Positions 9,603 through 46,008 of a DNA stretch of 64,000 bases are shown in pieces. The translations under genes were made by a program, and so were the position numbers. Source of the stretch: an uncultured Veillonellaceae bacterium (GTDB taxonomy: Bacteria; Bacillota; Negativicutes; Selenomonadales; Selenomonadaceae). The notes under the pieces are model-generated. The model did not search any database and had not been told where the DNA came from. It saw nothing but the letters and a program-made list of their open reading frames with translations. Each line of letters opens with the position of its first letter. Within the stretch, counting starts at the first letter, position 1. The stretch spans positions 10,070 to 74,069 of the forward strand of contig CADCIX010000006.1 of assembly GCA_902801565.1 (NCBI GenBank). The letters are read 5' to 3'.

Positions 9603-9618
9603 AAAAGTTCCTCCTGAC

Positions 9619-20498: not shown

Positions 20499-21062
20499 AT
20501 GATATGCAACGAACGTCTGGAAAAGCCAAGATATGAGCACATCAACAACAGGGAGCGGCTCATGACCCAGCCATCCATCAACCACAGCCGGATATCCTGC
20601 AATTTCATGAGAATTATTGCAAACTATCTTCGCGGCAAGAAATGCAAGGTGTTCGGCGAAGTCGATGTCTATTTTGACGAGAACACCCACTACATCCCGG
20701 ATGTCATCATTGTCTGCGACAAGGACAAGATCAAGCCCGACGGCATCTACGGCGCACCGGACCTGGTCATAGAGATATTGTCGCCCTCCACGGCAAAGGT
20801 TGACCGCACGGAGAAAAAGGAGACCTACGAGAAATTCGGTGTCAGGGAATACTGGCTGGCAAACCCCAAGGATAAATCCGTCGAGGTCTACCATCTCGTG
20901 GACAACGCCTTCCTGCTGGACGAGATCTACCACGCCTATGAGCCGGTGGAGTGGAAAATGCTCACCGAAAAGGAAAAAGCGGAACAGAAACTCTCCCTCA
21001 AAGTCTCCCTCTATGATGATTTTGAGATTCCTGTGGAGGAGATATTTGAGGATATGATCTAG
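20499..21062 (+). CDS. Uma2-family (DUF820) restriction-endonuclease-like protein
   Basis: YEHINNRERLMTQPSINHSRIS...APDLVIEILSPSTAKVDRTEKKETYEKFGVREYWLANP matches the Uma2 PD-(D/E)xK pattern. ATG at 20499 follows GAAAGGGG. Confidence 0.8.
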   Translation: MICNERLEKPRYEHINNRERLMTQPSINHSRISCNFMRIIANYLRGKKCKVFGEVDVYFDENTHYIPDVIIVCDKDKIKPDGIYGAPDLVIEILSPSTAKVDRTEKKETYEKFGVREYWLANPKDKSVEVYHLVDNAFLLDEIYHAYEPVEWKMLTEKEKAEQKLSLKVSLYDDFEIPVEEIFEDMI

Positions 21063-26528: not shown

Positions 26529-26606
26529 GACTCAGTAGCTCAGCTGGATTAGAGTATTTGACTACGAATCAAAGGGTCGGGGGTTCGAGTCCCTCCTGGG
26601 TCACCA
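26529..26606 (+). tRNA. tRNA-Arg (anticodon ACG), CCA encoded
   Basis: GACTCAG TA GCTC AGCTGGATTA GAGT A TTTGA CTACGAA TCAAA GGGTC GGGGG TTCGAGT CCCTC CTGGGTC A CCA folds as a cloverleaf and closely resembles E. coli tRNA-Arg(ACG). Confidence 0.92.
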
Positions 26607-26618
26607 TAAGAAAAGTTC

Positions 26619-26650
26619 AAGCCCATCGGTACATGCCGATGGGCTTTTTT
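26619..26650. terminator. Terminator after tRNA-Arg, shared with the convergent secreted-protein gene
   Basis: AAGCCCATCGG-tacatg-CCGATGGGCTTTTTT. Confidence 0.75.
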
Positions 26651-27822: not shown

Positions 27823-27849
27823 CTTTATACTTCCTTTCACTACGAACTT

Positions 27850-29651: not shown

Positions 29652-29729
29652 TGGTGACCCAGGAGGGACTCGAACCCCCGACCCTTTGATTCGTAGTCAA
29701 ATACTCTAATCCAGCTGAGCTACTGAGTC
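29652..29729 (-). tRNA. tRNA-Arg (anticodon ACG); sequence matches the 26529-26606 copy
   Basis: By manual comparison, the reverse complement matches the plus-strand copy over all 78 nt. Confidence 0.92.
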
Positions 29730-30073: not shown

Positions 30074-30102
30074 ATTCTAATCATTTATCGGTCTTTTGTC
30101 AA
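30074..30102 (-). promoter_or_regulatory. Predicted promoter of the five-tRNA operon; its -35 overlaps the helicase stop codon
   Basis: Minus strand reads TTGACA, 17 nt, TAGAAT, located about 45 nt upstream of the first tRNA-Gly. Confidence 0.6.
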
Positions 30103-33100
30103 GCATTTTTTTCATTTTTTTCATCAGCCAGCAAATCCTCCCGCCTCCATTCCTCGCGAATCCGTGCTGCGGCTTCCAGCACCCTTGCCAAAAGCTCTTC
30201 CCGCGCTTTCCCTGCAGAATGGCCGGCATCTTCCTTCCCCATCGGCAAGATCCCATATCGGCGAAGCTCTTCCTCCATGTCATCCATGGCACTCTCCGGG
30301 GAACGATAAAACCTGCTGCCCCGAAGCCGCAGGAATACCCATCCCAAACGCTCCAGCACTGCCTGTTCCTTCTGTGCTTCCAAAAGACAGTTCTCATCAT
30401 CCTCCCCGTCCTCGCCTTCACAGGAAACAGCGACCCTGCGGCCAGAAGACAGGACCGCCATATCAATCCGATAGGCGCCCACGGGCCACCGCTCCTCTAC
30501 GCGAAACCCCCGCTGACGGAGCCTCTGTGCCACCTCCTGATGGAACGCCGGCACAGGCCCCCCTGCCGTTCTACCTCCCGACAACATCATGGAATCCTCC
30601 GGGGAGGCCGCATATTCCAGAAGGCCGCGCCGAAGACCGCCTTCCTCCAGTTCCTCGATGCCCATGGAATGAAGCACCCATAGCTGATCCCTGGCCCGAC
30701 TGGCCGCAACATTATAGTTCCGCTTTTCGGCATCGACCGGTTCCTTCCCGGAATCCATCTCCTGCACCGATGCTGCATCATCCACCATGGAAAGGAAGAT
30801 GACATCCCTTTCATCTCCCTGGAAATTCATGGGGGTGCCCGCCAGGAAATTCCTTTCCTCCAAACGCGGAATGCCGATGCGCCGCAGGGCAATCTCCCGT
30901 ATCAGGCGCCCCTGGCCATCCCCCAGCAGCGAAATGGCGCCAAAGGTCTTGCCCTCATACTCCGATTGCTCCATACAGGCCATCATGAGCACGACAATCT
31001 CCTCTGCCTCCTTCCAATTCACTGGCCGCTCCCCGTCCCTCACACCATCCACCTCATAGGAAACCACAGGTTTCAGCGTACTCCCTCCGGATTCCCGGAG
31101 AGGCTGTATGAGATTCTGGTAGACAAGCTGGTTGGAATAACCGATAATTTCGGGAACAGAACGGAAATGCTCCTTGAACATGCGCGTCTCGAAATACATC
31201 CGGGCGATATCATAGAGGGAATTGTCCAGAACATAGGGATTTGCATATCCATCTCCCTCGAAAAGAGAAGGCACTCCGAGGCCGGACACCTCATCCTCTG
31301 ACAGATCGATCGGTTCCGGAGCAACCTGCTTGTCATCCCCCACGACAATCACCTTGTGTCCGAAATAAAGCAGGGGCAGCGATGTGATATCCGCCTGGCT
31401 TGCTTCATCCATGATGATGACATCGAACTTCCTGCTCTCCGGCTGCAGATTTTCCCATACCTTGTCCAAGGGCATGATCCATACCGGCACGGCAGACTGC
31501 AGTTCCATCGTCTGTTTCCGGGCCATGCGGACGCGACGGGAAATGTTCCTCCCTGCGTCCCTTCCTGCTTTTTTCACCGCCCTGCTCCAGCTCATGAGCG
31601 TCGCACGAATGCCGCTGTCTGCAACCTCCTGGAAAAAATTCCGCCATGCCAATTTTTCCACCAAACCGGCCGTGATTTCATGAAGCTGCTCCAACTGCCG
31701 GTGCAAAGCCCCATCCAAGCCTGCCACATCCTCCCCGGCCGCCTTTGCCAATTGCTGGACAAACTGCCGGCATTTCCATGCATCCTCAAGAGCAGCCGGC
31801 ACCTCTGCCATACCGGAGCTTCCATGCTGGCGGGCTATGCCCGCTGCCCAGTCGGGGGCAACCGACGCTAGCCGCGCCAGAAAATCCGTCCGCTCCTTGA
31901 ACTTGTCCATCAGGCTTTCATAGTGGAGCAATTTGTCATAGTCCTTGCGATACGCCTCGCTGCTCCCCCCCTGCAAGGCAACAGCCAGACGCTTTGCGAG
32001 CTGGGAACGCCGTTCCGCTAATTCTGCGACACGCTTGCGGAAATTTCCCATCAATGCCTGTTTTTCGATGCATTCCAAGCGAATCAGTGCAGCACACTGC
32101 GGCCAGGACTCCTGAAGCCAATGGATCTCCATCGCCATCTGCTGGCGCGGTGTCATGAACCTCTCATCCTCCGGCAGGATCTTTTCCAGCTTTACCCCCG
32201 CCTCATCCAGATGTTTCTGAAAGGATTCCCTGCGATTATCGTACCAGTCAAGGCAATACTGAATCTGCTCCCAGCGGGCGCTGCAGATATCATCCACATC
32301 ATCCGAGGAAATCCAGAGCTCCTCATAGGTTGGCTCACCGCACCGTCCCAGAAGATGGTCCCATTCCTGCTGCACCCGCCGCCGCGCCTGCTGCAGGCTG
32401 AGATATCTCTCCGCCACCATACAGTCCTGGTCACTCCGAAGGCCATGGCCGTCAACGAGGATCTTCTGTGAAAGCCTGCGCCAGCTTCCATGAAGGATTT
32501 TCTGCAAAATGGACAGCTCTCCCTTACGGGCAAAGGTCTCCCGCATATCCGCCAGCTCCCTGAGCACCCGCTCATCATACATTATCTCTTCCGGGCATTC
32601 CACCGAACGCCCCAATAGCGGAATCACGGCTGCATCCTTGCAGGTCCGCACCCGCCTAATATCCTCGCCCAGCTGCTCCCATGCCATCCGCGCAGTTCCG
32701 CCCTGCCTGCCTGCCAGTACAGCTTCTCTGGCCCAGACGGACTCCATCCATGCAAAATCGATCTGCCGATAATCTGCCTCCGCCGTCAGGAATGCGTCCA
32801 TCTGAAAATCCGCCACAACCTGCTCATGACGGTAAAAGATCTGCTCCTCCTCCACAGTCCAGTCCGGCAACTCCTGCAAGAGGCCGCGTTCCCGCTCACC
32901 CAGGATTTCCTGTTCCTGCAAGAGATTCTCCACATCTACAGGGGACAGGAGCCTGCCGCTCTTCGGCAGATTCTCCGCCATTTCCTTCAGGTCCTGACGG
33001 CTGAACAAACCGTTGCTGGCATAAAGCAGGGCCAGTTCCTCTGCCGTCAGGGGGATTGCCTTCCCCTCCCCGACCTTTCCCGGGACAATTTCCAATAAAT

Positions 33101-34643
33101 GCTCATGTTCATGGACAAACCTGGCCATTCCAGAAAGGGAATACGCTTCTCCCCCGAAGGAAAAGAAGTCCCTCCTGTGTTCCATGCGTCGGACAGCGGC
33201 TGCCTTCTCACGGGAATCGCCGAGCAGCTTCCGGGCTTCCTTCCATTTTCGGCGCGCTTCCTGGGCCTCATACTCCATATCCTCTGTGGTGGAGCTTCCC
33301 AGCACATCGCAGATTCCCTCCACGGAACGTTCCAAATCCCGATAGGAATCCCCCTGCAGGGAAACACAGAGATTGCGGATCCCCTCCGGGAGCATGCCTT
33401 TCAGGATGCGCAATGCCTTGGGCGTTGAGCTCGTCACCAGCACGCGGTTTCCCCTTGCCAGGAAATGCCCCAACAGATTTGCAATGGTATGCGTCTTTCC
33501 CGTACCGGGAGGCCCCTGTACCACCACAGCAGAGGATTCCTCCAGTTTCCTGGCAATTCCGATCTGTTCCGCATTGGCGGATTTGACCAGAAGGATATCC
33601 TCGGACTCTCCCCTTGCATCCGCCAGGGTCTCCCTGCGGCAGGACACATTCCTCTCCGATGCCCTGGCATCCACAATATCCAGGAGGGGCAAGGGAACAT
33701 CGCCCTTATCCGCAATGCGTTCCATGATTCCCGAGAGCAATCTTTCTTTTCTCGAATGCTTCCTGCGCAGGAAAAGCACAGGACGGGCATAGAGAATATA
33801 CCAGTCCGTAGGCAGGATATGGAACCCTTCTGACGCATAACGGCATTTGGGACTAAGCAGGGAGGCCATATCTTTCAAGAGAGCTTCCCCAACGTCCTTC
33901 TGCAAAGGATGGATACCGGACCTCCCAACTTTCCTTTGTGCTGCACGGAGTGCCTCTTCACCCACATCCTCCTGCCCAAGGAAAAGCTCACTATAGAACT
34001 CCAGTTCCTCCCTGGCATCCACAAGCTGCATGTGCTCCTTTTCCGTATAGCGCACCTGCACCTTTTTGAGCAACAAGGGATGATGCAGACGGGAATCCAG
34101 ACCACTGTAGAAGAAACCATTTCCCGCCATGAGTTCCATCTTCTCTCCATCCCGGCGGCAGCGCTCATATATGCGGTAGAGGTCATCGAACAGATGCTTC
34201 GCCTGTTGTTTCAGCCGCTCTTTCTTGCGCCACTTCTGCCTGGCCTTCTTCCACTCTGAAAAATTCCTGACGCGCCGCTCGCTGTCATGGAAGCGCATGA
34301 CAATGCTTCCCATCTGCTCCGTGGTTTTCGCCAGTTCCGAATGCACCTTGACCTCATCCACGTGAAAATCTTCCCATCGGGGCGTTGCAATCCAGCCCGC
34401 CAGGGCATCCGGCAAAGCAGGGCATGGGGAAAACTCCGGACGGCCTACATCCAAAAGGATTTCGCTCCCATCCTCGTCTTTACCAGCAAAAAAACGAAGT
34501 CCGCCTCCTTCAGATTCCAGCTTGTCCAGATAGAGCACCCACTCCTGTTTCTCAATATCTGTCACGGTTTTATATTGCAAAACACAGATCTGGCGAATAT
34601 ATTCCAACAAGGCCAGAACTTTTTCCTGCTTCTCACGGCTCAT
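30099..34643 (-). CDS. 1514-aa SF1 (Upf1/DNA2-like, AAA_11/AAA_12-type) helicase with a C-terminal Vsr/DUF559-like endonuclease fold
   Basis: Helicase motifs seen: GPPGTGKTHT (aa 377-386), IIMDEASQ (aa about 1076-1083), VVGDDKQ, FQGDERDVIFLS and NVAASRARDQLWV. The C-terminus reads YRIDMAV...VAVSCEGE...LERLGWVFLRLRG. The ATG overlaps the upstream stop (ATGA). Confidence 0.85.
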   Translation of the reverse strand: MSREKQEKVLALLEYIRQICVLQYKTVTDIEKQEWVLYLDKLESEGGGLRFFAGKDEDGSEILLDVGRPEFSPCPALPDALAGWIATPRWEDFHVDEVKVHSELAKTTEQMGSIVMRFHDSERRVRNFSEWKKARQKWRKKERLKQQAKHLFDDLYRIYERCRRDGEKMELMAGNGFFYSGLDSRLHHPLLLKKVQVRYTEKEHMQLVDAREELEFYSELFLGQEDVGEEALRAAQRKVGRSGIHPLQKDVGEALLKDMASLLSPKCRYASEGFHILPTDWYILYARPVLFLRRKHSRKERLLSGIMERIADKGDVPLPLLDIVDARASERNVSCRRETLADARGESEDILLVKSANAEQIGIARKLEESSAVVVQGPPGTGKTHTIANLLGHFLARGNRVLVTSSTPKALRILKGMLPEGIRNLCVSLQGDSYRDLERSVEGICDVLGSSTTEDMEYEAQEARRKWKEARKLLGDSREKAAAVRRMEHRRDFFSFGGEAYSLSGMARFVHEHEHLLEIVPGKVGEGKAIPLTAEELALLYASNGLFSRQDLKEMAENLPKSGRLLSPVDVENLLQEQEILGERERGLLQELPDWTVEEEQIFYRHEQVVADFQMDAFLTAEADYRQIDFAWMESVWAREAVLAGRQGGTARMAWEQLGEDIRRVRTCKDAAVIPLLGRSVECPEEIMYDERVLRELADMRETFARKGELSILQKILHGSWRRLSQKILVDGHGLRSDQDCMVAERYLSLQQARRRVQQEWDHLLGRCGEPTYEELWISSDDVDDICSARWEQIQYCLDWYDNRRESFQKHLDEAGVKLEKILPEDERFMTPRQQMAMEIHWLQESWPQCAALIRLECIEKQALMGNFRKRVAELAERRSQLAKRLAVALQGGSSEAYRKDYDKLLHYESLMDKFKERTDFLARLASVAPDWAAGIARQHGSSGMAEVPAALEDAWKCRQFVQQLAKAAGEDVAGLDGALHRQLEQLHEITAGLVEKLAWRNFFQEVADSGIRATLMSWSRAVKKAGRDAGRNISRRVRMARKQTMELQSAVPVWIMPLDKVWENLQPESRKFDVIIMDEASQADITSLPLLYFGHKVIVVGDDKQVAPEPIDLSEDEVSGLGVPSLFEGDGYANPYVLDNSLYDIARMYFETRMFKEHFRSVPEIIGYSNQLVYQNLIQPLRESGGSTLKPVVSYEVDGVRDGERPVNWKEAEEIVVLMMACMEQSEYEGKTFGAISLLGDGQGRLIREIALRRIGIPRLEERNFLAGTPMNFQGDERDVIFLSMVDDAASVQEMDSGKEPVDAEKRNYNVAASRARDQLWVLHSMGIEELEEGGLRRGLLEYAASPEDSMMLSGGRTAGGPVPAFHQEVAQRLRQRGFRVEERWPVGAYRIDMAVLSSGRRVAVSCEGEDGEDDENCLLEAQKEQAVLERLGWVFLRLRGSRFYRSPESAMDDMEEELRRYGILPMGKEDAGHSAGKAREELLARVLEAAARIREEWRREDLLADEKNEKNA

Positions 34644-36418
34644 GCGCCCTTCTCCTCCGCAGCATCTTCCTGTTCCTTCGTTTCCTGTGCTTTTTTCGCT
34701 TCTTCCTTTTCCATCCGGGCAAACGCTTTGGGATCGATCTCCTTCAGATATTCCTTGGGAATCTCAGCCTTGGAATCCAGGGTATGAAGCGTCCGGTAGG
34801 CGTCCAAGGCCTGCTCCCTCTGGTCCATCTCATCGTAGAGCTCCGCCGTGAGAAGCCATGCTACTGCGCTCTTTTTATCCAATTCCCTTGCCTTGGCACA
34901 GTCCTCCATTGCCTTTTCCCGATCTCCCATCATACGATAGATATCCGCCCTGTTCAAATAGTTCAAGGCATTACTCCCATCCATGCGAATGCCCTTCCCG
35001 GCATCTTCCAACGCCCCGGCAAAATCCCCTGCCACGGCCTTGGCCCTGCCGCGGATCACATAGCATTCCGCCATGTTGTCCTGCTTCTCGCTTTTCATGG
35101 CCCGTTCCATCTCCACCATAGCCATCTCACTCATGCCATAGTCGCTGTAGGCATCGCTGTTGTAACGGAGCTTTTCCGCAAACTTCTTGTCCGCGGACAA
35201 TGCCTGTTGCCGGATCTTCTCAAGCTCATCCATCCGCTTTTTCTCTTTCTCCTGAAGCTTCGCCCGGCCTTCTGCATCAGCTTCCCTGCCATAGGCTGCG
35301 GCCACCAGGGTTTCCAATCGCTGCATCGTTTCCCCATTTCCGGCAAACTCCTTCAGGATACCATAGACCCGGTCATCCGTGAGGCAATCCATTCTCCCCT
35401 GCTCCGTGCGGAAATTCCATCCCTCGATCGTGTCATGGTCATGGAATGCCTTGGCAAGAGCCCCGGCAACACCATAGGCATTCTCCACGGTATTGTCATA
35501 GCTCGCCCCCGTATCTCCCACGGAAAGGAAGAGCTCCCCATCGATGAGCACATCCTTCTGGTCGCGTATCGTCACATGCCCGCAGCTGTACTCCGTCATC
35601 AGCTCTGCCAGGCGCTTCTCGCGATCCTCTGTCTCCGGATGGTCGCTGTACTCCGTCTGGCCTTTCTTGTCCGGGCTGTCAAACTCATACATATCCCGGG
35701 TCTCATAGCGAAGGTAATGCTGCATGCGAGCCATTGCTGCGGCAGGCCCCCCGGGATTGAACCCGGCACTCGTCATGAGGAAGAAGCCTTCCTCATCCGC
35801 CTCTGCCTCCGTAGGCATCGTGACATTCGTGGCAATGGAATACCCCACAAGCCCGTTGAGTTTCTGCCAGTCAACGTTATTCGTCTCCATGCCGAGAAGG
35901 GTGATTCCCATGGCCTGCGCCACTGCCTGGGCATAATTGTGGGCGCTGTGCTGCCTGAGTCCATGCACCATCTCATGTGCCAGCACCGCTGCAATCTCGT
36001 CCTCATCAGAGTTGAGTCCCCGCACCAGCCCACGATTCACGCTGATGTAATTCGTCGGATAACAGGAAGCATTGAAGAGCTTGCTGTCATTCACTGCCCA
36101 TAGAAAAGGAAGCGAATTCACCTGCATCGCATAGTCTCCCTTATCGATGAGCTGCTTCATGACACGATCCACCAGCTGCACATCCATCGGGTTCCTGTCC
36201 TGCCCATTCTCCCGAAGATCCTGCCTGCGGCTGCTCACCTGGGCGTGGACATTATTGCCCATGCGCAGAAGATCCGTCAATGCCGACTTGTACATGCCGT
36301 AAATCCCCAATGCCTGGGCCGCTATCGCCCAGGGATCCGGGGAAGATGCCAGAGCCTTCCCTTGCGGCAGGATCCCCAAGGCAGCCACAAGCAAAACAGC
36401 AATCCATCGTTTCCACAT
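34640..36418 (-). CDS. Exported M48-family zinc metalloprotease with C-terminal TPR repeats (BepA-like architecture)
   Basis: Signal peptide MWKRWIAVLLVAALGILPQGKALA. HEMVH at aa 148-152, with a downstream EAEADE. The C-terminal approx 150 aa carry TPR-like repeats (AECYVIRGRAKAVAGDFAGALED..., ALNYLNRADIYRMMGDREKAMED...). Confidence 0.8.
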   Translation of the reverse strand: MWKRWIAVLLVAALGILPQGKALASSPDPWAIAAQALGIYGMYKSALTDLLRMGNNVHAQVSSRRQDLRENGQDRNPMDVQLVDRVMKQLIDKGDYAMQVNSLPFLWAVNDSKLFNASCYPTNYISVNRGLVRGLNSDEDEIAAVLAHEMVHGLRQHSAHNYAQAVAQAMGITLLGMETNNVDWQKLNGLVGYSIATNVTMPTEAEADEEGFFLMTSAGFNPGGPAAAMARMQHYLRYETRDMYEFDSPDKKGQTEYSDHPETEDREKRLAELMTEYSCGHVTIRDQKDVLIDGELFLSVGDTGASYDNTVENAYGVAGALAKAFHDHDTIEGWNFRTEQGRMDCLTDDRVYGILKEFAGNGETMQRLETLVAAAYGREADAEGRAKLQEKEKKRMDELEKIRQQALSADKKFAEKLRYNSDAYSDYGMSEMAMVEMERAMKSEKQDNMAECYVIRGRAKAVAGDFAGALEDAGKGIRMDGSNALNYLNRADIYRMMGDREKAMEDCAKARELDKKSAVAWLLTAELYDEMDQREQALDAYRTLHTLDSKAEIPKEYLKEIDPKAFARMEKEEAKKAQETKEQEDAAEEKGA

Positions 36419-36430
36419 ATCCGCAACCCC

Positions 36431-38059
36431 TCAAAACATGATCTTGCACTCAAACATACGATTCCATGGGAAACTCACCTTCAGGTTCTGCCACCCATTA
36501 AAAGAAGGAAAGTTCCTCTCCGCAAATTCCCTCAGAAGTGCGCCGACACGATTTTCCTCTTCCGTGCGGAAACCATCCAGCCGTCCATAGGCTTCTGCAT
36601 GCCCTGCCATCCGCAGCTCATTTTCCACAGCGCCTCGTACATTGGCCTGATATGCCCAGTCATCAAGATAGCGGCGAAGCAGGAGCCGCTCCCGTCCCGC
36701 ATCGGTCATCTTGTTGGACAGCATCCCTGTTCCCAGCGCGAAGCCGGAACTATTGGTCGCCGTGTTCCATCCGGAATACGCACGAAGCCTTCCCAGCAGG
36801 CCTTCCTTCCACAGATTCTCCATCAGTGCATTATCGGAACCATTGGCAAAGGCGATATCCGCAATCCCCACAGGATACCCTTTGGCGAGGCAGTCCTTCA
36901 GAAGGTCGAAGAAATACATGGAGCCATCCCGCGCATTTCCGTCATTGACCATCGGTGCAGAGCCCGGCACGGAAAAAGATGCCTCCCCTGTTCTCCCCTG
37001 AGGATCCGTATTCACCAACAGGACGAAATCCGCCTTGCCCGGTTCGGGAACCAGCATGCCGCCAGCCACCACCACAGAATCACGAATGGAATCCCCGATG
37101 TGCTCGTCGGAATAGGAAGGAATCGTATCCGCACCCGTGCCCTCATTGTACAACACATAGACAAAGGGAACCTCATTCTGCAAATCGTTGACCGCCCGCG
37201 TCAGGAGCAGCAGGTTGAATTCATCGATTCCCGTCATGGACTTGAACTGGCTCCCGGCCATTCCCCTTGTCGCGGCATAGGACTTGAGCTCCCTGTTTTC
37301 CTTATGTGTCTGGCAAAGAGGCGCATTGTCATCCCGACCGACAACGAAGCATTTCGCAATGCCTTGCTTCGTCAAGTCCATCAGCTGTTTCGTGGCGGAG
37401 AGGTTCTTCTCCCGACGGTTCATCCAGTCCAGCAATACCTCCGAGGGGATGCGCTGCCGGACCTCTTTCATCTCTGCTTTCTCCTGGGCGGAAAGATGCC
37501 CCATCTCCTCCTTGTCCTTGAGTGCCGTATAGCGAAAGATATCCGCGCCGTAATCATTGTAGTACTCCGGCTCCTCATTTCCGGAATAGATCCCGCTCTT
37601 CGGCGTCCGCATCAGGGAGCCGAAAAGGTACAGCCTGAGTTTCGGATACTTGTCGTGAAACTGCTTGAACCGTTTCACCCTCTCATCGATTTTCACCTGT
37701 GCAATCTCATGTTTCCGCGAGGGAATCAATCCCCCATAAAGCATGGAATCCGTGGAGACCACCGCTGCCTGCGCAGATTTTGCATTTTCCTCCAGCCATT
37801 TCCACAATCCATCGGGATTCCCCGGTTCTTCCAGGGCGCGGGACAACAAATCCTCCGGCGGCATCACCAGTTCATAGCCGGCCTGTTCCACCACCTCCGC
37901 CGTCTGCTGCATGGAAATCGGACGGTTGTCGTGGGGAATGAAGATGATCTTCTCCGCGCACTCTGCGCTGCCTCCCCATCCCAGCATCACAAAAACGGCC
38001 AGGCATGACAGCAACAAAATGCGGCAAATCCCTGTTTTTCTCTGTATCTTCTCTTTCAT
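36431..38059 (-). CDS. DUF4127-family protein with N-terminal signal/anchor
   Basis: MKEKIQRKTGICRILLLSCLAVFVMLGWGG, then IIFIPHDNRPIS and STDSMLYGGLIPSR, as in DUF4127. ATG at 38059 follows GGAGAA. The listed ORF start at 38224 overlaps the upstream gene. Confidence 0.75.
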   Translation of the reverse strand: MKEKIQRKTGICRILLLSCLAVFVMLGWGGSAECAEKIIFIPHDNRPISMQQTAEVVEQAGYELVMPPEDLLSRALEEPGNPDGLWKWLEENAKSAQAAVVSTDSMLYGGLIPSRKHEIAQVKIDERVKRFKQFHDKYPKLRLYLFGSLMRTPKSGIYSGNEEPEYYNDYGADIFRYTALKDKEEMGHLSAQEKAEMKEVRQRIPSEVLLDWMNRREKNLSATKQLMDLTKQGIAKCFVVGRDDNAPLCQTHKENRELKSYAATRGMAGSQFKSMTGIDEFNLLLLTRAVNDLQNEVPFVYVLYNEGTGADTIPSYSDEHIGDSIRDSVVVAGGMLVPEPGKADFVLLVNTDPQGRTGEASFSVPGSAPMVNDGNARDGSMYFFDLLKDCLAKGYPVGIADIAFANGSDNALMENLWKEGLLGRLRAYSGWNTATNSSGFALGTGMLSNKMTDAGRERLLLRRYLDDWAYQANVRGAVENELRMAGHAEAYGRLDGFRTEEENRVGALLREFAERNFPSFNGWQNLKVSFPWNRMFECKIMF

Positions 38060-38123: not shown

Positions 38124-39314
38124 TCATGTTTCCTCATCCTTTGCCATGCAGCAGTTCTTGTATTTCTTCCCGCTGCCGCAGGGACAGGGATCGTTTCTTT
38201 TTGCCTTCGCCTTATGCTGCCCAAAGGGAACCACCTTCCCCTTGCTTTCCCCCATAAGTTCCCCGGGGGTGTGTCCCTTGAGGGGCCAGAGATGTGTGGA
38301 ATTGTTGAAATCCATCAGCAGGGGAACCATCGCCTTTGCCTTGCGGTCATCTGCCATGAGGCCAAGCTCCTCAAGATATTCCACCACATCCTTCATGGCA
38401 TTGCCGTTCTGCAGCAGGATAAGGATTTCCCCCACCACATCCGCTGCTTTGAGGACATCGTATCCATGCTCCTTCATGATGAACTGCGCCAGTGCCTTAT
38501 AGGCATCCGTCGCTTCAATATAATTGTCCTCCCCTGCCTCATAGACCTTGTCATAAGGCAATTTGACAAAGTCCAGATTGCTGCGGCGGCACTGCTCGTT
38601 CTCCAGTTTGTCTGCACTGATGAGAGTATAGTATTTCATTCCATGGGGAAGTGCCCCGATGTTCTGCTTCCAGCATGCCGCATTGAGCATGATGCCCACG
38701 AAATCCATAAAGGAAACGGTCTCCCGCGCCTCCTTCTCCAGATATCCTCCCACCATACCATAGAGCTGGTCAAAATTCAGATAACCGCAATAAAAGAGCA
38801 GCCCCGTTGCCAGTCTTGCAATTTCCGTATTGAGTTCCACCGCACTGCGGAAAACACCAGAATCAATCTTCCGAAACTCCTCCTGTATCTCCTCCGGCAT
38901 GTACCAGGCGAGCTTTTCCTCCTGCACGCCGCAGGAAACAAGCCCCAGCCCCATCAGATAATCCAGTCGGATATCATCATCCCGAAGTTCCGTGGAGATG
39001 CCGGAATGTTCCATGAGATGGCGGAAACAGCCGTATTCCTCTTCCAGCATGGACGGGAACCAGCGACGGGAAAACTCCGGCACCGCCTCCGCCAGTCTTT
39101 CCACCAGTTCGTCCTTCTTCAGGGAACTGATCCCTGTCACATTGAGGTTATAGCAGATATCCTCCAACGTCGTCTTCGTCATACCGGAAAGGGCACTTCT
39201 CAAATCTCTTTTCTCCGGAAGTTTGTGGCGATAAAGCTGTTTGCGCCGTTCCTCCTTTGCCGCCGCTTCCAAATTTTCCAATTCTTTCGTGATATCGATT
39301 TCTTTAGGTTTCAA
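38124..39314 (-). CDS. SEC-C motif protein with an N-terminal SAP/Rho-N-like helix-hairpin
   Basis: C-terminal DPCPCGSGKKYKNCC (nt 38148-38186). N-terminal LEDICYNLNVTGISSLKKDELVERLAEAV. TTG start at 39314 follows GGAGAT. Confidence 0.75.
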   Translation of the reverse strand: MKPKEIDITKELENLEAAAKEERRKQLYRHKLPEKRDLRSALSGMTKTTLEDICYNLNVTGISSLKKDELVERLAEAVPEFSRRWFPSMLEEEYGCFRHLMEHSGISTELRDDDIRLDYLMGLGLVSCGVQEEKLAWYMPEEIQEEFRKIDSGVFRSAVELNTEIARLATGLLFYCGYLNFDQLYGMVGGYLEKEARETVSFMDFVGIMLNAACWKQNIGALPHGMKYYTLISADKLENEQCRRSNLDFVKLPYDKVYEAGEDNYIEATDAYKALAQFIMKEHGYDVLKAADVVGEILILLQNGNAMKDVVEYLEELGLMADDRKAKAMVPLLMDFNNSTHLWPLKGHTPGELMGESKGKVVPFGQHKAKAKRNDPCPCGSGKKYKNCCMAKDEET

Positions 39315-39413
39315 GCTCTTTCATCTCCAATATAACATAATCCTGCCCCTGCTTTGGGCATGTTGATAAATTACGCCAGCACACCTTAAAAGTTCATACT
39401 ATATATCATGATA

Positions 39414-39469
39414 TTATCCACAAATCGTTTTCCACAGCCTGTGGATAATGTGGATATTTCCGTGGATAA
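39414..39469. promoter_or_regulatory. Cluster of five DnaA-box-like 9-mers
   Basis: TTATCCACA (39414-39422, perfect), TTTTCCACA (39428-39436), TGTGGATAA (39440-39448, perfect, inverted), TGTGGATAT (39449-39457) and CGTGGATAA (39461-39469). Confidence 0.7.
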
Positions 39470-39539
39470 ACAAATATCCTGCCCTTTATTCTATCACGTG
39501 AAAGACTTGCGGGCAAACTATTTGCCCGCCCTGTCTGCA

Positions 39540-40685
39540 TCAAGAAATCCTCAATAAAGATTCAAAATATCCTGCCATGTGATTTTCCCTCAAATACTCG
39601 CGGATAATCCTCATGGCATCCCTATTGTGGTCCAGCCGCTCTGTCAGGCGGTCAATGCCAAGGAGAACCTCCTCAAATCCCATCCCCCCCTGCGCCGACA
39701 TCATCAGCAATGCAAACTCCATCACCTTCCATGACAGGACGAAGATCCGCGCATTCTCCTCCATGGACTCGGGATAGGCGTAGGGATAAAAACGAAGGAA
39801 GAACTCATTGGACAGGTAATTCTCGAACAAGGAGCGATGCTCCTGCAGAAGCTGTTTTGCAAAAACGGGATACTGTCCTTCATAAATTTCCAGCAATACC
39901 CCCAAGCGCTCCTCATCCGACGGTGCCCCGTAGAGTGCATGGAACAGCTCCATCATGGCGCGGATGTATCCTGTCCTCGAAAATTTCCCGTCGCTCCCCT
40001 CTTCCAAGACACGAAGGGAAAACTCCCCGGACTCCACATCCTCCAACAGCCTCCCAAAGCCCTTGCCATCTCCTGCCTCCAACAGGACTTCCGCCCGCCT
40101 GTAAAAAGACAGCAGGGAAAACAGGCACTGGTCAAGGGTGAGCCTCCTGTCCTGCAAAAGCCAGATACCCGCCGACTGCAGATCCTGCCAGTCCTCCCCA
40201 TGCTGCCCCACCTTATCCGTCATATCGAACTGCCAGCCCCTTCGCTGCTCTTCCCTCTCTTCCTCCACAAAACGAAGGGGCCCGTCCTGTCCCAGGAGCA
40301 ATCTGGCCGCCACAGGACAGCTCATGGCCAGGGACTGCTCCACAACCTCCCCGATCCGATAAGTCACCCGGGGATAGGAATAGCAGATGTCCGACAGAAA
40401 TTCCTCCCCATAGTCCTTCTGCAGGCGGCAGAGACTATCCTCCCGCAGAAATGGGCACCTCCTGTCCTCCCGAAGACGCACCGGATAATTCCCCTTCTCG
40501 TCCTGCCCGGAGAACCACCCGCAAATCTCATCGCACACATCCCTTGGCTCCATCCCTTGATACTTCTCATATGTCCCAGGGTCCACCGCCACGCTCCAAT
40601 CCCTGCAGCAGCGACTGCCACACGCCTTCCCGTCACATCGAAACTGCCCCACATATTCCGGATATATATACGTCACCATGCTCAT
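39540..40685 (-). CDS. FliB-family flagellin lysine-N-methylase-like protein
   Basis: YPEYVGQFRCDGKACGSRCCRDWSVAVDPGTYEKY matches the FliB N-terminal Cys cluster (F.C.G.AC...CC..W.I.(L/V)D). About 380 aa. Confidence 0.7.
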   Translation of the reverse strand: MSMVTYIYPEYVGQFRCDGKACGSRCCRDWSVAVDPGTYEKYQGMEPRDVCDEICGWFSGQDEKGNYPVRLREDRRCPFLREDSLCRLQKDYGEEFLSDICYSYPRVTYRIGEVVEQSLAMSCPVAARLLLGQDGPLRFVEEEREEQRRGWQFDMTDKVGQHGEDWQDLQSAGIWLLQDRRLTLDQCLFSLLSFYRRAEVLLEAGDGKGFGRLLEDVESGEFSLRVLEEGSDGKFSRTGYIRAMMELFHALYGAPSDEERLGVLLEIYEGQYPVFAKQLLQEHRSLFENYLSNEFFLRFYPYAYPESMEENARIFVLSWKVMEFALLMMSAQGGMGFEEVLLGIDRLTERLDHNRDAMRIIREYLRENHMAGYFESLLRIS

Positions 40686-40807
40686 CCCAACCACTCCAAA
40701 AATAGCATTTGCCTTTTATCACAGCAAATGCTAGAATTCTCATATCACTATTATATCATAGGACAATAAAAAGTACCTCAAGAAACCAATGACAGCAGGT
40801 GATTCCC

Positions 40808-41233
40808 ATGCCCAACTTAAACGAAACCGACCTCTCCAATCTCTCCCGCCCCCACGGCCAGGAGCAACAGTTAAAAATGGAACTCCTCAACATGATCCAC
40901 AGTGCCGAAAACCCCTTCGACATCATCTGCCATGTGGCACGGCAGCTGGAAACAAGCTCCGGCGAACCCGGATACGCCCAGTATGTAGAAGAACAACTTC
41001 GGGCTGTCTACGGCTTTGCCCTGCAGCACAAAAAACTCCTGACAGACGAACTCCGCGATGTGGAGGAACGCCTCAAAATCATCGAGGAGCGCAACAAGAA
41101 CGGTGACTTCACCGAAGAAGAACACACCCGCATCGGCTTCGCCATCGACCGCCACAAGAAAAATATCGAACGCCTCAAGACCATGATCCAAAAAGCCGAA
41201 GCAGATGGAACCCCCCTCTATTTCGACAAATGA
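40808..41233 (+). CDS. Hypothetical protein (141 aa)
   Basis: Plus-strand ORF with AGGTGA upstream of ATG 40808 and a terminator downstream. No family recognised. Confidence 0.5.
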   Translation: MPNLNETDLSNLSRPHGQEQQLKMELLNMIHSAENPFDIICHVARQLETSSGEPGYAQYVEEQLRAVYGFALQHKKLLTDELRDVEERLKIIEERNKNGDFTEEEHTRIGFAIDRHKKNIERLKTMIQKAEADGTPLYFDK

Positions 41234-41278: not shown

Positions 41279-42085
41279 TTAAATCAGTACATAGACGGTG
41301 ATATCGCGGCGGCCAAACTCCATGGCCTCGCCATAATCCTCCATGCAGAGGTCAATCATGTTGCCAATGATGGCCCCGCCGGTATCGGCGGCAATTGCCT
41401 CACCATAGCCGGGGATGTAAAGGCGTGTACCAAGCGGTATCACATCAGGGTCCACAGCCACCACGCCGCGTTCGGCCATCATGCCGGAAGCCGTGATGCC
41501 ATCCCCGCCGCCATCTGTCGGCAGATAGGCACTCGCCTCCATGATCATGGCCTCTGAGTAGCGAGCCATGCCCCGCGACGTCTCTACCTGTTCTCCGCGC
41601 TGTCTTTCAGCCTCAGCCGCTCGCTCTGCCGCAATTCTGGCTGCCCTGTCAGACAATGTTATATCGAGATGCTCATGAATTGTCGTTTCCAATCCCGGAG
41701 TGACATCATAGTCCTCCAGCTGATAGCCCATATCCAGAAGGGCTTCTTCCACTGTCAACTTACTGGTCAAAACTTCACTTTTCTGTCCATCGCAATCAAT
41801 AGTTACCGGGACAGCACGGTAAACCGTAATCTCTGTCTTGTTTCCATCTTTCTTCAGACGATACTCGTCCTTATCCTCAAGGGATATCCCTGCCTCACGC
41901 AGGATTCGTTCCGGGCTGACCTTGGCGGTATGGGTGTCTATGACACGCCCGTCCACCTCAATCTGCACATGCTGTATATCTTTCTGTGTAAAACCTGTCG
42001 TCAGCATCATGAACGAGGCCAACATCAGGCTGACTGCCAATTTTTTCTCGTTCTTTCGGAATAAGCGTATTTTCTTTAAACTCAT
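41279..42085 (-). CDS. YabE-like cell-wall protein (DUF348 repeats + C-terminal 3D domain)
   Basis: N-terminal anchor, ubiquitin-like DUF348-type repeats (V.I.VDG......T...TV...L...GI), and a C-terminal 3D-domain pattern (GVVAVDPDVIPLGTRLYIPGYG...ADTGGAI.GN.IDL). Confidence 0.75.
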   Translation of the reverse strand: MSLKKIRLFRKNEKKLAVSLMLASFMMLTTGFTQKDIQHVQIEVDGRVIDTHTAKVSPERILREAGISLEDKDEYRLKKDGNKTEITVYRAVPVTIDCDGQKSEVLTSKLTVEEALLDMGYQLEDYDVTPGLETTIHEHLDITLSDRAARIAAERAAEAERQRGEQVETSRGMARYSEAMIMEASAYLPTDGGGDGITASGMMAERGVVAVDPDVIPLGTRLYIPGYGEAIAADTGGAIIGNMIDLCMEDYGEAMEFGRRDITVYVLI

Positions 42086-42372
42086 TCAATTCCCCCTTTC
42101 GACAGCATTCGGAAAACAGTCCCGAACCCGATAAGTCACTGCCTCACCAAGTTCTTGTGTCATAGTTTCCCACTTCTGTCTGAAAAAACACTGTAAAATG
42201 GTCCCAACTCCCCACTATGGCATCAGATTCGCCATGCTTCTACCACTTTTCAATGAAAAGAATATGAAAGTGCTTGAAGTCCTATAAAACAAGGACTGCC
42301 AGCGAATAGCACCAGCAGTCCTTTAATAACTAAAATTTATTATTTATATTCATTTTTTTCATCGATTTTATT

Positions 42373-43275
42373 TCATAAAAACTCTTGATACGTGTCAAGA
42401 AAGAGACGACGCGCCTCATTGTAGTCCGGATCCGTATCAAAGGAAAAACCCGGACTATCATGGATACACCATATATCACCCGAACAGGGCACCACAATGC
42501 GATAGCCCCTTTTCCGAAACTCCATGGACTGAGAGATATCATAGAAATGCCATCCATGAAACAAATCGCTTCGCCATGGCAGGTCATATTGTGTCATCAT
42601 GAATATCCCGTCAATAGCCTCAACAAATTCAAATTCCTTTTCCGTTTTCAAAAATCCCAGCCTATACGTGAGGTCAGGGGAAACTGCCTGGGCTGCAACG
42701 CCATATCCCTGTCCCTCCGTCTCGTACCAACGACCGTTTTTTGGCATACTGCTGCATCCGGCAAACCCAATCATCCCAACTTCCGGATGTTCCGCAAAAA
42801 TGCGCAGCATACGCTGCAAGGCATCCTCTTTTACGACACAAAGATCCTGGTGAATGTAAATCTTGTACTTCGCCCGGCTGCTCTGCATCCCCTCCTGGTA
42901 GCCGCTGGTGATGCTCTCCGCATGATAGATGGCGATAGGCTCCAATTCCATCCCATCCGGCAAATCACATTGGCTCAGATACAAAAGACATTCCTCGTAT
43001 TTCCTATCATCATTCACGCAGGAAATGACCGCAATTCTCTTGTCATCAGGAGTTTCTTCCTTGCCTCCCGAAAGTGCCGCCAGGACCCTGTCCGGATGCA
43101 AGCACGCCTGAACAAAGGGAAGCAACTTCTCTTGGGAGATGTGATGATTTGCACATAGACGCCACAGTTTGCTCGCATTCGCCTTCACATCGATGCCATA
43201 CTCGAGCCGACGCAGTATATAAGCCAACTCCCAACGAATCTCCAACGGAATCTCCTGTGGTGACTGTTCCGCCAT
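42373..43275 (-). CDS. Glycosyltransferase-like protein (GT2-like fold)
   Basis: IAVISCVNDDRKYEECL...YIHQDL...AIDGIFMMT...WHFYD resembles the glycosyltransferase-like family. Noticeably lower GC than its flanks, by eye. Confidence 0.5.
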   Translation of the reverse strand: MAEQSPQEIPLEIRWELAYILRRLEYGIDVKANASKLWRLCANHHISQEKLLPFVQACLHPDRVLAALSGGKEETPDDKRIAVISCVNDDRKYEECLLYLSQCDLPDGMELEPIAIYHAESITSGYQEGMQSSRAKYKIYIHQDLCVVKEDALQRMLRIFAEHPEVGMIGFAGCSSMPKNGRWYETEGQGYGVAAQAVSPDLTYRLGFLKTEKEFEFVEAIDGIFMMTQYDLPWRSDLFHGWHFYDISQSMEFRKRGYRIVVPCSGDIWCIHDSPGFSFDTDPDYNEARRLFLDTYQEFL

Positions 43276-43288
43276 TTTGGCACCCCCT

Positions 43289-44068
43289 TCACAAAGTCAT
43301 TTTTTCGTAAAGCGCTTCCGCATTCCGCGTTGTCCGGGCAGCAACTTCCTCCAGACCCATTTCCCAGATCTCCGCCACCTTTTCCGCCACATAGCGCACA
43401 TAGGCGGGCTCGTTGCGCTTGCCGCGCATGGGAGTGGGGGCCATGTAGGGGGAATCCGTTTCCACCAGCACCATGTCCTTCGGGGCCTGACGGAGGATTT
43501 CCGGAAGCTTGGCCGCATTCTTGAAAGTCAATGGGCCATCCACGCCAATGAACCAGCCCATGCGAAAGATTTCCCGAGCCATCTCCCAACTGCCCGAAAA
43601 GCAATGGAGAACACCGCGAAGCCCCTTCCCTTCCCGCTTCAGGATTTCCAGCACATCCCCATGGGCATCCCGGTCATGGATGCAAACGGGCAGATGAAGC
43701 TGCCGCGCCAGATCGAGCTGGCGAAGGAACACCCTTTGCTGCAGCTGGCGTTTTTCTGCATCCTTTTCCCAATAGTAGTCCAGCCCGATCTCGCCGATGG
43801 CCACGACCTTGGGATGCTTTGCCCATGCCGCCAGCTGGTCGATATCCTTCTCCGAAAGCTCATGGGCTTCCTCCGGATGGATGCCCACGGCGGCAAAGAG
43901 GCCCTCATGGGAGTCTGCCATTTCTGCAACCAAAGCCGAGGATTCCATTGTATCCCCCATATTGATGATGCGGTTCACGCCGTGCTCCCTTGCCCGTGCA
44001 ATGACCTCTTCCACATCGTCTGCGAATTTCCCATCGTTCAGATGGGCATGGGTATCCACGAATTCCAT
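43289..44068 (-). CDS. tatD: TatD-family metal-dependent hydrolase (YabD)
   Basis: FVDTHAHLND...GEIGLDYYW...IHDRDAH...HCFSG...ETDSPY are canonical TatD motifs. Confidence 0.92.
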   Translation of the reverse strand: MEFVDTHAHLNDGKFADDVEEVIARAREHGVNRIINMGDTMESSALVAEMADSHEGLFAAVGIHPEEAHELSEKDIDQLAAWAKHPKVVAIGEIGLDYYWEKDAEKRQLQQRVFLRQLDLARQLHLPVCIHDRDAHGDVLEILKREGKGLRGVLHCFSGSWEMAREIFRMGWFIGVDGPLTFKNAAKLPEILRQAPKDMVLVETDSPYMAPTPMRGKRNEPAYVRYVAEKVAEIWEMGLEEVAARTTRNAEALYEKMTL

Positions 44069-46008
44069 CAGCGCACCTGGCTTCCCACGGGCATATCCAC
44101 GTCCAGAAGCTTCATGTCATCGCCATGGGAAGCCGCCAGCACCATGCCATGGGAGACAATGCCGCGGATTTTCGCGGACTTCAGGTTGATGACCATGACC
44201 ACATTCTTGCCGATAAGTTCCTCCGGTGTATAGTGCCGGGCGATTCCCGATACGATCTCACGCTCCTCGTCGCCGAGATCCACCGTGAGCTTCAACAGTT
44301 TCTCCGTCTTTGGCACCGGCTCTGCCGCCAGCACTTTCACCACCCGCAGATGGATCTTGGAGAACTCCTCCATGGTGATCTCAGGATGCTCCTCCTTCTT
44401 TGCATCGGCCTTTGCCTTCTCCTTCTTTCCGGCTGCCTTCTGCTGCCTGGCAGGCGCCTCCTCTTTCTCCAGTTCAATGCGCGGGAAAAGCTGTTCCGGC
44501 ACACCAACCTTCAGATCGCCGGGGGTTCCGCCCCACTCCTGGATGTCCGAAAGCTGTACCCCGGAAAACTCCTTCGGCAGCCCAAGCTGCTTCCAGATGC
44601 GCTCCGCTGTTACAGGCATGTAGGGGGAAATGAGCACGCTGATGATGCGCAGGCTCTCCACAAGATTGTACATGGTGTTGGCAAGCTCCTGCTTCCTGCC
44701 GGCATCCTTCGCCAGCACCCAGGGAGCCGTCTCGTCGATGTACTTGTTGGCGCGGCTGACAAAGGCCCAGACCTTCTTGATGGCACTGCTCAGCTGCATT
44801 GCCTCCATCTCTTCCCCGTAGGCCTTCACGGTCTCCATGGCATCTGCCTTGAGGGACGCGTCAATCCCGCTCTCTCCCTGCGGCGGGATCAGGCTTCCCT
44901 GCTGGAACTTGCCGATCATATTGAGGGTACGGTGCAGGAGATTGCCAAGGTCATTGGCAAGGTCGGAATTGATGCGGGTGATGAGGGCATCCCGCGAGAA
45001 ATTGCCGTCCTGCCCCAGATTGATCTCCCTGAGCAGGAAATAGCGGATGGCATCGGCACTGAATTCCTCGATGAGCGCAAGAGGATCCACCACATTGCCC
45101 TTGGACTTCGACATCTTGTCGCCGCCCACGATGAGCCATCCATGCCCGTAGATCATCTTCGGCAGAGGAAGCTCCAGGGCCATGAGGATGCAGGGCCAGA
45201 TGATGGAATGGAAACGCACGATTTCCTTGCCCACCAGGTGAAGGTCCGCCGGCCAATACTTGTCGAATTTTTCCTTGTCGTCCAGGAACCCGATGGGCGT
45301 GATGTAGTTCGTCAGGGCGTCAAACCAGACATAAATCACATGTTTCGTATCGATGGGAACGGGAATCCCCCAGTCGAAAGAGGTCCTGGAGATGCAAAGA
45401 TCCTCCAGGCCCTGTTTGATGAAATTGATCATCTCATTGCGGCGGGAGACGGGCTGGATGAAATCGGGATTCGCCTCGATGTATTCCAGCACCTTGTCCG
45501 CATATTTGGACATCTTGAAGAAATAGGCTTCCTCCGAGACCTCCTGTACCGGACGATGGCAGTCAGGGCAGCAGCCGTTCTCATCGAGCTGGTGCTCCGT
45601 CCAATAGCTCTCGCAGGGTGTGCAGTAAAGCCCTTTATAGGAACCCTTGTAGATGTCCCCTTTCTCATAGATGCGACGGAACACTTCCTGCACCACGCGC
45701 TGATGGCGCTCCTCCGTGGTGCGGATGAAATCATCGTTGGAAATATGGAGTTCCTTCCAGAGGTTCTGGAACCCTGCCACTATCCCATCCACATACTCGA
45801 TGGGAGTGACCCCTGCCGCCTCCGCCGTCTGCTGGATTTTCTGCCCATGCTCGTCGGAGCCAGTGAGAAAGAACACATCATATCCCGCAAGGCGCTTGAA
45901 ACGGGCAATGGCATCGGCTATGGTGGTGCAATAAGCATGCCCGATGTGCAGCTTTGCACTGGGGTAATAAATCGGTGTAGTGATATAAAACGGTTTCTTC
46001 TTTTCCAC
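44068..46008 (-). CDS. metG: Methionine--tRNA ligase with C-terminal tRNA-binding (Trbp111-like) domain
   Basis: YYPSAKLHIGHAY (HIGH), KMSKSKGN (KMSKS), a CPDC zinc knuckle, and a C-terminal LRVVKVLAAEPVP... Confidence 0.95.
   Translation of the reverse strand: MEKKKPFYITTPIYYPSAKLHIGHAYCTTIADAIARFKRLAGYDVFFLTGSDEHGQKIQQTAEAAGVTPIEYVDGIVAGFQNLWKELHISNDDFIRTTEERHQRVVQEVFRRIYEKGDIYKGSYKGLYCTPCESYWTEHQLDENGCCPDCHRPVQEVSEEAYFFKMSKYADKVLEYIEANPDFIQPVSRRNEMINFIKQGLEDLCISRTSFDWGIPVPIDTKHVIYVWFDALTNYITPIGFLDDKEKFDKYWPADLHLVGKEIVRFHSIIWPCILMALELPLPKMIYGHGWLIVGGDKMSKSKGNVVDPLALIEEFSADAIRYFLLREINLGQDGNFSRDALITRINSDLANDLGNLLHRTLNMIGKFQQGSLIPPQGESGIDASLKADAMETVKAYGEEMEAMQLSSAIKKVWAFVSRANKYIDETAPWVLAKDAGRKQELANTMYNLVESLRIISVLISPYMPVTAERIWKQLGLPKEFSGVQLSDIQEWGGTPGDLKVGVPEQLFPRIELEKEEAPARQQKAAGKKEKAKADAKKEEHPEITMEEFSKIHLRVVKVLAAEPVPKTEKLLKLTVDLGDEEREIVSGIARHYTPEELIGKNVVMVINLKSAKIRGIVSHGMVLAASHGDDMKLLDVDMPVGSQVR

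Follow-up and report, generated by a model that had tools for sequence, protein, structure and literature searches.

The closest described counterparts of the element analysed here are the DnaA-box clusters (DBCs) of Bacillus subtilis that lie outside the replication origin oriC and double as DnaA-regulated promoters, namely those at ywlC-ywlB, yydA-yycS, yqeG-sda, ywcI-vpr, thdF-jag and gcp-ydiF. These six clusters contain 4-8 boxes in 44-96 bp and reach values of 0.36-1.64 for A, a score that predicts DnaA binding; according to Ishikawa et al. (2007), A exceeds 0.3 in all eight regions of B. subtilis bound by DnaA in vivo, and only in those (PMC2533591). Proximity to oriC is typical of the family and not obligatory, yqeG-sda being distant from it. 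In the present work we examine an array of five DnaA boxes in a stretch of 64,000 nucleotides from an uncultured bacterium of the Selenomonadaceae (contig CADCIX010000006.1; the whole stretch is hereafter called the window, and positions refer to it unless another locus is named). The array occupies 56 bp (39414-39469) within the 225-bp intergenic gap (39315-39539) between fliB and a gene for a SEC-C-motif protein, both on the minus strand, and at the level of sequence it has every property of DnaA-box clusters that are predicted to bind DnaA stably.

The array shares with the B. subtilis DBCs an intergenic position, a composition of 4-8 boxes with at most one mismatch in approximately 45-100 bp, an A-value above 0.3, a location at the promoters of neighbouring genes, which are predicted ones in our case, and a presence that varies by species (PMC2533591, PMC3245932). 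It differs from them in its Negativicute host, in a density above that of any B. subtilis DBC and in having downstream genes unrelated to known members of the DnaA regulon. Another parallel is offered by the autoregulated dnaA promoter of Escherichia coli, B. subtilis, Streptomyces and Mycobacterium. The array likewise places its boxes between a promoter-like element, P1, and a coding region, an arrangement associated with repression (PMC2533591), although the gene downstream is not dnaA.

Box array and predicted binding of DnaA

On the minus strand, where all neighbouring genes are encoded, the sequence of the array is TTATCCACG-gaa-ATATCCACA-TTATCCACA-ggc-TGTGGAAAA-cgatt-TGTGGATAA, that is, three direct boxes followed by two opposite ones, with gaps of 3, 0, 3 and 5 bp (Table 1). 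Boxes 3 and 5 are the only perfect copies of TTATCCACA in the window, and the mismatches of the three imperfect boxes are peripheral. An initial annotation of this DNA, made from its letters alone, had pointed to five 9-mers here, two of them perfect and oppositely oriented and three with one mismatch each; all five were found at the positions given, and orientation and mismatches proved correct as well. Boxes 3 and 4 together make up a perfect inverted repeat (6+6), TCCACA-N3-TGTGGA. A sixth box-like 9-mer, TTATCAACA (39361-39369), was dropped from the array, as its invariant C6 is broken and it is not conserved.

Boxes with at most one mismatch number 25 in the window, against 10.35 expected from shuffled sequence. 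When 64 kb were simulated 200 times under a first-order Markov model, the maximum number of boxes per 60 bp was one in 183 runs and two in the remaining 17, whereas the observed value is five, and the Poisson expectation of at least five boxes in any 56-bp span of the window lies below 1e-6. A density and quality of this order are therefore not given by chance.

For the A-value we used weights of 4 for TTATCCACA and 1 for one-mismatch boxes, with a distance convention reproduced from two published table rows. DnaA-box clusters are in turn defined as at least four close boxes matching TTATNCACA with at most one mismatch (Ishikawa et al., 2007; Okumura et al., 2011), and the array, with five boxes in 56 bp inside the fliB/SEC-C gap, has both the number of boxes and the intergenic position that this family calls for. 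Its two overlapping quartets give A = 2.73 and 2.33, the threshold being 0.3, and the higher value exceeds that of every non-oriC cluster of B. subtilis. By comparison, the best other quartet in the window that shares none of these boxes reaches A = 0.05. Across 1.89 Mb of other loci, A surpassed 0.3 at seven sites, three of which are homologous to the array.

The internal architecture of the array points in the same direction. Chromatin immunoprecipitation sequencing in E. coli has identified direct box pairs 2-3 bp apart as the preferred DnaA target, required at nearly all targets according to Stringer et al. (PMC11317965), and boxes 1 and 2 constitute a direct pair with a 3-bp gap as found at those targets. 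The triple made of a box, 3 nt, a second box and an abutting third one is also present in two unrelated loci of Clostridia, L064 and L049, on the 5' side of hpf-secA, which suggests, from the sequences compared, a recurrent DnaA-binding architecture in Firmicutes.

These two loci deserve a remark of their own. The clusters they carry (L064, 4126-4224, from an uncultured bacterium; L049, 4136-4259, from Metaclostridioides mangenotii) are dense, with A = 0.95 and 0.70, and both lie upstream of hpf (Ribosomal_S30AE) and secA. They may represent a conserved DnaA-controlled hpf-secA promoter. Two more clusters with A > 0.3 were encountered in random Firmicute loci (L038, 11648-11717; L007, 81-175), one just 5' of an Amidase_3 gene and the other at the 5' end of a Mur-ligase gene.

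Conservation and distribution of the array

Four haplotypes were compared, namely the window as reference, L081/L082, L179 and L172, whose SEC-C proteins are 95-97% identical where known. L081/L082 (SEC-C, 97% amino acid identity) has identical boxes, a single change in a spacer and a near-identical intergenic region. L179 (FliB, 92%) likewise has identical boxes and one spacer change, together with a 21-bp insertion upstream and about 50 bp less downstream of the array. L172 (SEC-C, 95%) keeps the spacing and shows one change within a box plus one at an insertion junction, a Uma2 gene upstream and a palindromic insertion of about 86 bp downstream. The five boxes are thus present with identical spacing in all four haplotypes.

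Only six sites vary within the 56 bp, four of them among the 11 spacer positions and two among the 45 box positions (hypergeometric p = 0.011), and one of these two is the insertion junction. Between the window and L172, 2/45 box positions have changed, compared with 17.6% of the third codon positions of the SEC-C gene (p = 0.009). The TCCACA cores are invariant across the haplotypes, and the inverted repeat of boxes 3 and 4 is kept while its spacer varies. In L172, the Uma2 gene has come to lie between the fliB terminator/P1 and the array, which means that the array has remained attached to the 5' end of the SEC-C gene; the palindromic insertion separates box 5 from the -10 region. On this comparison of sequences, the array is a conserved island in an otherwise fluid spacer. 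The Uma2 gene of L172 (restriction-endonuclease-like) spans 9086-9658 of that locus, and the palindromic insertion, at about 9835-9925, resembles a miniature inverted-repeat transposable element.

Beyond this lineage, the genes flanking the array occur without boxes. SEC-C homologues with 56-71% identity (Mitsuokella, S. ruminantium, Selenomonas sp. GACV-9 and others) sit in an AMIN-amidase/SEC-C/MatE context that has no boxes, and the idea that the boxes travel with the SEC-C family was consequently rejected. No box cluster was found in 80 metagenome loci anchored on fliB, one of which (fliB 66% identical) has 216 bp of downstream sequence; this result, along with the array staying with the SEC-C gene in L172, led us to reject the notion that the boxes mark the 3' end of fliB or a chromosomal position. 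As to DUF4127, its homologues with 48-65% identity are stand-alone genes in unrelated contexts, again with no boxes, and PADLOC and NCBIfam recognise the SEC-C/DUF4127/M48/helicase genes as no system, for which reasons a conserved system carrying the boxes was rejected too. Given that distant relatives have the same genes elsewhere without boxes, the array is lineage-specific; as far as the compared loci indicate, the gene cluster and the box array are a recent assembly in one species-level lineage.

The SEC-C family itself is conserved across the Selenomonadaceae (L083-L091), where the gene normally comes right after that of an AMIN-domain amidase and before that of a MatE transporter. It heads a DUF4127/M48/helicase cluster in the lineage of the window only.

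Proposed DnaA control and competing explanations

The array overlaps the predicted promoters of the SEC-C operon. P1, detected by consensus scan, lies 19 bp upstream of box 1, which would place the array at approximately +12 to +67 of the predicted P1 transcript; it is conserved in L179 and in L172, where it stands 5' of the inserted Uma2 gene. P2 falls below the threshold of the scan and is therefore a putative promoter read from the sequence, with a motif common to all haplotypes: CATGaTATATAGT in the window, TGtTATACT in L179, and TGgCATACT with TATAAT just upstream in L172. The stem-loop that overlaps the -35 element of P1 is a probable fliB terminator, conserved with one change in L081/L082. 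As for a structured RNA or riboswitch in the leader, this candidate was rejected: Rfam matched only tRNAs in the window and no family at the array region, and a weak hairpin (39344-39360) is absent from L179 and L172.

Taken together, the A-value above threshold, the overlap with predicted promoters and the conservation footprint make a DnaA regulatory site the best reading of the array. We consider it reasonably probable that the array is a DnaA operator acting on the SEC-C/DUF4127/M48-TPR/helicase-nuclease operon, probably a repressive one, that would also sequester some DnaA. That DnaA binds the array at all we regard as quite likely, while repression as the sign of the regulation, which is drawn by analogy, is put forward with less confidence than the operator as such. 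The boxes, their density and conservation footprint, the order of the genes and the lack of origin features were observed directly; DnaA binding, the positions of the promoters and the sign of regulation are the parts that we infer. The initial annotation had proposed a DnaA-titration or regulatory site, or DnaA control of the downstream operon; regulatory site and operon control hold up as the best reading, and what falls away are its arguments from origin proximity and from the adjoining AT-rich tract.

With regard to mechanism, the two perfect boxes and the direct pair with the 3-bp gap would be the points of nucleation for DnaA, probably as a cooperative oligomer of ATP-DnaA. Because of its position within the P1 transcript, the occupied array could act as a roadblock to transcripts started at P1, and because boxes 4 and 5 would cover the -35/spacer region of P2, RNA polymerase would be kept off that promoter. 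The operon would accordingly be expressed less at high levels of active DnaA and more once DnaA has been depleted or titrated to other sites, and a few DnaA molecules would be sequestered as a side effect, as at the B. subtilis DBCs. DnaA of B. subtilis is a repressor in most cases, probably because it prevents the transcription initiation complex from forming, poses a roadblock, or does both.

Several points weigh against such an operator. DnaA can also activate, as it does at the sda promoter with its five boxes upstream, and the sign of the regulation is for this reason uncertain. P2 of the window (TGaTATATA / TATAGT) is a weak match, with TATAGT changed to TATGGT in one haplotype. Furthermore, the insertion in L172 moves the array about 86 bp further from P2, and with the promoter displaced in this way a strict promoter-operator geometry is not conserved, so that a roadblock or sequestering fits better than occlusion. 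Finally, the array is limited to one species-level lineage, which restricts the conservation tests to four closely related sequences; with few substitutions among such close relatives, these tests are supportive rather than conclusive.

Alternatively, the array could be mainly a DnaA-sequestering or chromosome-organising cluster that tunes the timing of initiation, like the B. subtilis DBCs and E. coli datA, with an incidental effect on the operon. We find this unlikely. In its favour, the number and density of the boxes equal or surpass those of B. subtilis DBCs that, when deleted together, lead to early initiation (PMC3245932; PMC2533591), and species-specific DBCs located 5' of varying genes are known for Bacillus. 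In addition, datA has five high-affinity boxes as well, and the array has been kept in L172 though about 86 bp away from the promoter. A single five-box site, however, holds few DnaA molecules, and a clear phenotype in B. subtilis required the deletion of six DBCs; moreover, the window contains neither dnaA nor a skew switch, and the position of the array between P1 and P2 argues for a transcriptional role as well.

More speculative, and in our opinion improbable, is a role of the array as an element of the datA or DARS (DnaA-reactivating sequence) type, altering the nucleotide state or the availability of DnaA by means of the facing boxes 3 and 4 and the direct boxes, or as a link between the helicase-nuclease/M48/DUF4127 module and the status of replication initiation. 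Were such a link to exist, the module would become active once DnaA has been sequestered or replication disturbed. The likeness to datA, whose five high-affinity boxes lie outside oriC and have a negative effect on initiation, is one of box number only. datA spans about 1 kb, against 56 bp for the boxes of the array, and belongs to a different phylum; it needs integration host factor and catalyses the hydrolysis of DnaA-bound ATP. The core of DARS1 and DARS2 promotes the release of ADP from DnaA, an activity described, to our knowledge, only in E. coli and its close relatives. In that core, boxes I and II are opposite with a 5-bp gap and boxes II and III are direct (PMC6868365). The array resembles it in that boxes 3/4 are opposite and boxes 2/3 and 4/5 direct, which we take as a lead only, and departs from it in the gap between the opposite boxes, 3 bp instead of 5 bp.

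It also seems improbable that the array is a young neutral by-product, for instance of the local duplication of a 9-12-bp unit, that matches DnaA boxes without having a function. Its restriction to one species-level lineage would suit such an origin, and so would the abutting boxes 2 and 3 and the direct order of boxes 1, 2 and 3, which are as expected from slippage or duplication. Tandem duplication alone, however, does not give a specific 9-mer consensus in both orientations. Besides, the variation is concentrated in the spacers (p = 0.011), the boxes have changed less than synonymous sites (p = 0.009), and four independent indel or insertion events have spared the array. DnaA would in any case bind such a sequence whatever its history.

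Still less credit is given to the idea of an operator for another dimeric factor that would recognise TCCACA-N3-TGTGGA at boxes 3 and 4, with no more than a coincidental likeness to DnaA boxes. The perfect repeat, kept in all haplotypes around a variable spacer, is what such a factor would call for, but three further full 9-mers, including their TTAT arm, and the direct orientation would be left unexplained. No regulator gene stands beside the site, the flanks being fliB and the SEC-C gene, nor does any Rfam family match it, and we know of no Firmicute regulator with a TCCACA half-site.

The question of an origin was addressed from several sides. GC skew is negative in 32/32 two-kb bins of the window and the cumulative skew is monotonic, with no switch in 64 kb; from this strand bias, the origin would lie beyond the right end. 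A motif scan of the six frames (G[LV]GKTHL or DH[ST]TV) found no dnaA in the window, in agreement with the initial annotation, and the window has no dnaN or rep gene either. The same annotation had placed the locus near the origin by analogy with Bacillus synteny, an argument that does not carry over, since the host is a Negativicute and the holB-metS block runs in the window into an ftsEX-ctpA-prfB block, which we take not to be origin-proximal in B. subtilis. A similarity of the site to plasmids, phages or viral contigs was looked for, and none was found.

The AT-rich tract beside the boxes, also noted in the initial annotation, is indeed there (24/29 A/T, 83%, at 39388-39416, beginning 2 bp away from the start assigned originally). 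It is nonetheless one of nine equally AT-rich 29-mers in the window and appears to be ordinary promoter region, shortened or displaced in L179 and L172 and hence not conserved. It also lies on the wrong side of box 5 for unwinding: in the E. coli oriC sequence, matched at 100% identity once per genome in 5425 genomes, it is past the CACA end of box R1 that the unwinding 13-mers are located, while the end of box 5 nearest the tract is TTAT. Boxes 1-3 do point towards the tract, but from more than 30 bp away, the spacer limit of the basal unwinding system being 16 bp (PMC8287927). With this oriC module of DnaA-boxes, DnaA-trios and an AT-rich region the array has in common close boxes beside an AT-rich tract; it differs in box orientation and distance and in having no skew switch, no dnaA/dnaN and no conserved AT element. 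A replication origin here, whether the chromosomal oriC, another origin or what remains of that of an integrated plasmid or phage, with the tract as its unwinding element, is accordingly very hard to credit, even with a box cluster that adjoins an 83% A+T tract.

Experimental maps of non-origin box clusters and DnaA regulons cover few model bacteria only. The array is a very strong candidate, as defined by sequence, in the Selenomonadaceae (Negativicutes), a family of the rumen and gut, and as a DnaA operator it would bring an uncharacterised operon into the set of genes coupled to replication status. That the array was gained in one lineage is in keeping with the fast turnover of clusters between Bacillus species. 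The site is of interest for the exceptional density of its boxes, for the phylum of its host and for the operon behind it, which is uncharacterised; as both the kind of element and its likely mechanism have been described before, we regard the result as useful but incremental.

Neighbouring genes and other features of the window

As had been proposed initially, the array lies upstream of the SEC-C, DUF4127, M48 and helicase genes, all of them on the minus strand (Table 1). No convincing terminator was found between these four genes, and a tRNA array with a strong promoter and a terminator of its own comes after the helicase gene. The start of the DUF4127 gene was set at about 38059 because its homologues have approximately 540 aa.

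Table 1. Coordinates of the DnaA boxes, promoter-like elements and adjacent genes in the window
Feature	Position	Strand	Sequence	Remarks
DnaA box 1	39461-39469	-	TTATCCACG (plus-strand letters CGTGGATAA)	One mismatch, position 9; unchanged in L081, L179 and L172
DnaA box 2	39449-39457	-	ATATCCACA (plus-strand letters TGTGGATAT)	One mismatch, position 1; direct repeat of box 1, 3-bp gap
DnaA box 3	39440-39448	-	TTATCCACA (plus-strand letters TGTGGATAA)	Perfect; abuts box 2; TAATCCACA in L172
DnaA box 4	39428-39436	+	TTTTCCACA	One mismatch, position 3; opposite to box 3, 3-bp gap, CACA ends facing
DnaA box 5	39414-39422	+	TTATCCACA	Perfect; 5 bp from box 4; TTAT end 3 bp from the conserved CATG of an extended -10-like element
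Promoter-like P1	39488-39516	-	TTGCCC-17 nt-TAGAAT + TG	Extended -10; from consensus scan
Promoter-like P2	39398-39410	-	CATGATATATAGT	Extended -10 type; 3 bp after box 5; boxes 4-5 would cover spacer/-35
Stem-loop	39509-39529	-	GCGGGCAAA-tag-TTTGCCCGC	Directly 3' of the fliB stop; overlaps -35 of P1
fliB (flagellin lysine-N-methylase)	39540-40694	-		Upstream of the array; NCBIfam NF038110, 192.7 bits vs cutoff 85
SEC-C-motif protein gene	38124-39314	-		396 aa; TTG start, GGAG 9 nt upstream; first gene 3' of the array
DUF4127 gene	36431-38059	-		Putative start at ~38059; open reading frame (ORF) open to 38224
M48 peptidase + TPR gene	34640-36418	-		12 bp after the DUF4127 gene
SF1 helicase gene, C-terminal MTES_1575 nuclease domain	30099-34643	-		1514 aa; start overlaps the M48 stop by 4 bp

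The homologues of the SEC-C, FliB and DUF4127 proteins all belong to the Selenomonadaceae (Selenomonas, Mitsuokella, Schwartzia, Quinella and metagenome-assembled genomes). An exact-sequence look-up of the SEC-C protein of the window returned nothing on record, and its CPCGSGKK motif is a generic zinc motif that matches SecA-like C-termini across all phyla. The AlphaFold model of this protein (pLDDT 79) bears a weak, non-significant resemblance to tandem winged-helix proteins (MukE, ScpB, ESCRT-II), with no match in the PDB at E < 0.1; tandem winged-helix folds are, on the basis of the model, possible. Among the products of the four genes, only the helicase showed a partial similarity to anti-phage proteins, namely ProA, Hhe and PDC-S37, at scores far below their cutoffs.

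To the right of the array follow a 3D/DUF348 (yabE-like) gene, a glycosyltransferase gene, tatD and metS. Beyond metS, comparison with an annotated conspecific contig identifies rsmI, a methyltransferase gene, PSP1/yaaT and holB, and still further to the right lie ctpA-like, M23, ftsX, ftsE and prfB genes. The metS-tatD-yabE segment (41279-46008) differs among closely related strains. Between tatD and the yabE-like gene, the window carries a Glyco_tranf_2_5 gene and L172 an additional Methyltransf_21 gene; L081 has neither of the two at this place and carries instead a glycosyltransferase gene between the SEC-C and DUF4127 genes.

A second promoter-like element, TTGCCT-17 nt-TAGAAT with TG, nearly identical in form to P1, is located at 40709-40737 on the plus strand. 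It faces a plus-strand ORF of 144 aa (40799-41233) with no match in Pfam, and conspecific contigs have a 141-aa gene at that position.

Elsewhere in the window, tRNA-Arg(ACG) occurs twice in inverted orientation, at 26529-26606 (+) and 29652-29729 (-). The two copies bracket ORFs at 26650-27840 and 27850-29409, for which Pfam, NCBIfam and PADLOC gave no match, and their inverted arrangement may indicate an island or an inversion at a tRNA gene. A Uma2 gene is found at 20412-21062 (+), where the GC content dips to 0.48. Lastly, two radical-SAM genes, one with a SPASM domain, adjoin a 258-aa ORF without a family match in the segment 23556-26446, which may be a peptide-modification cluster.

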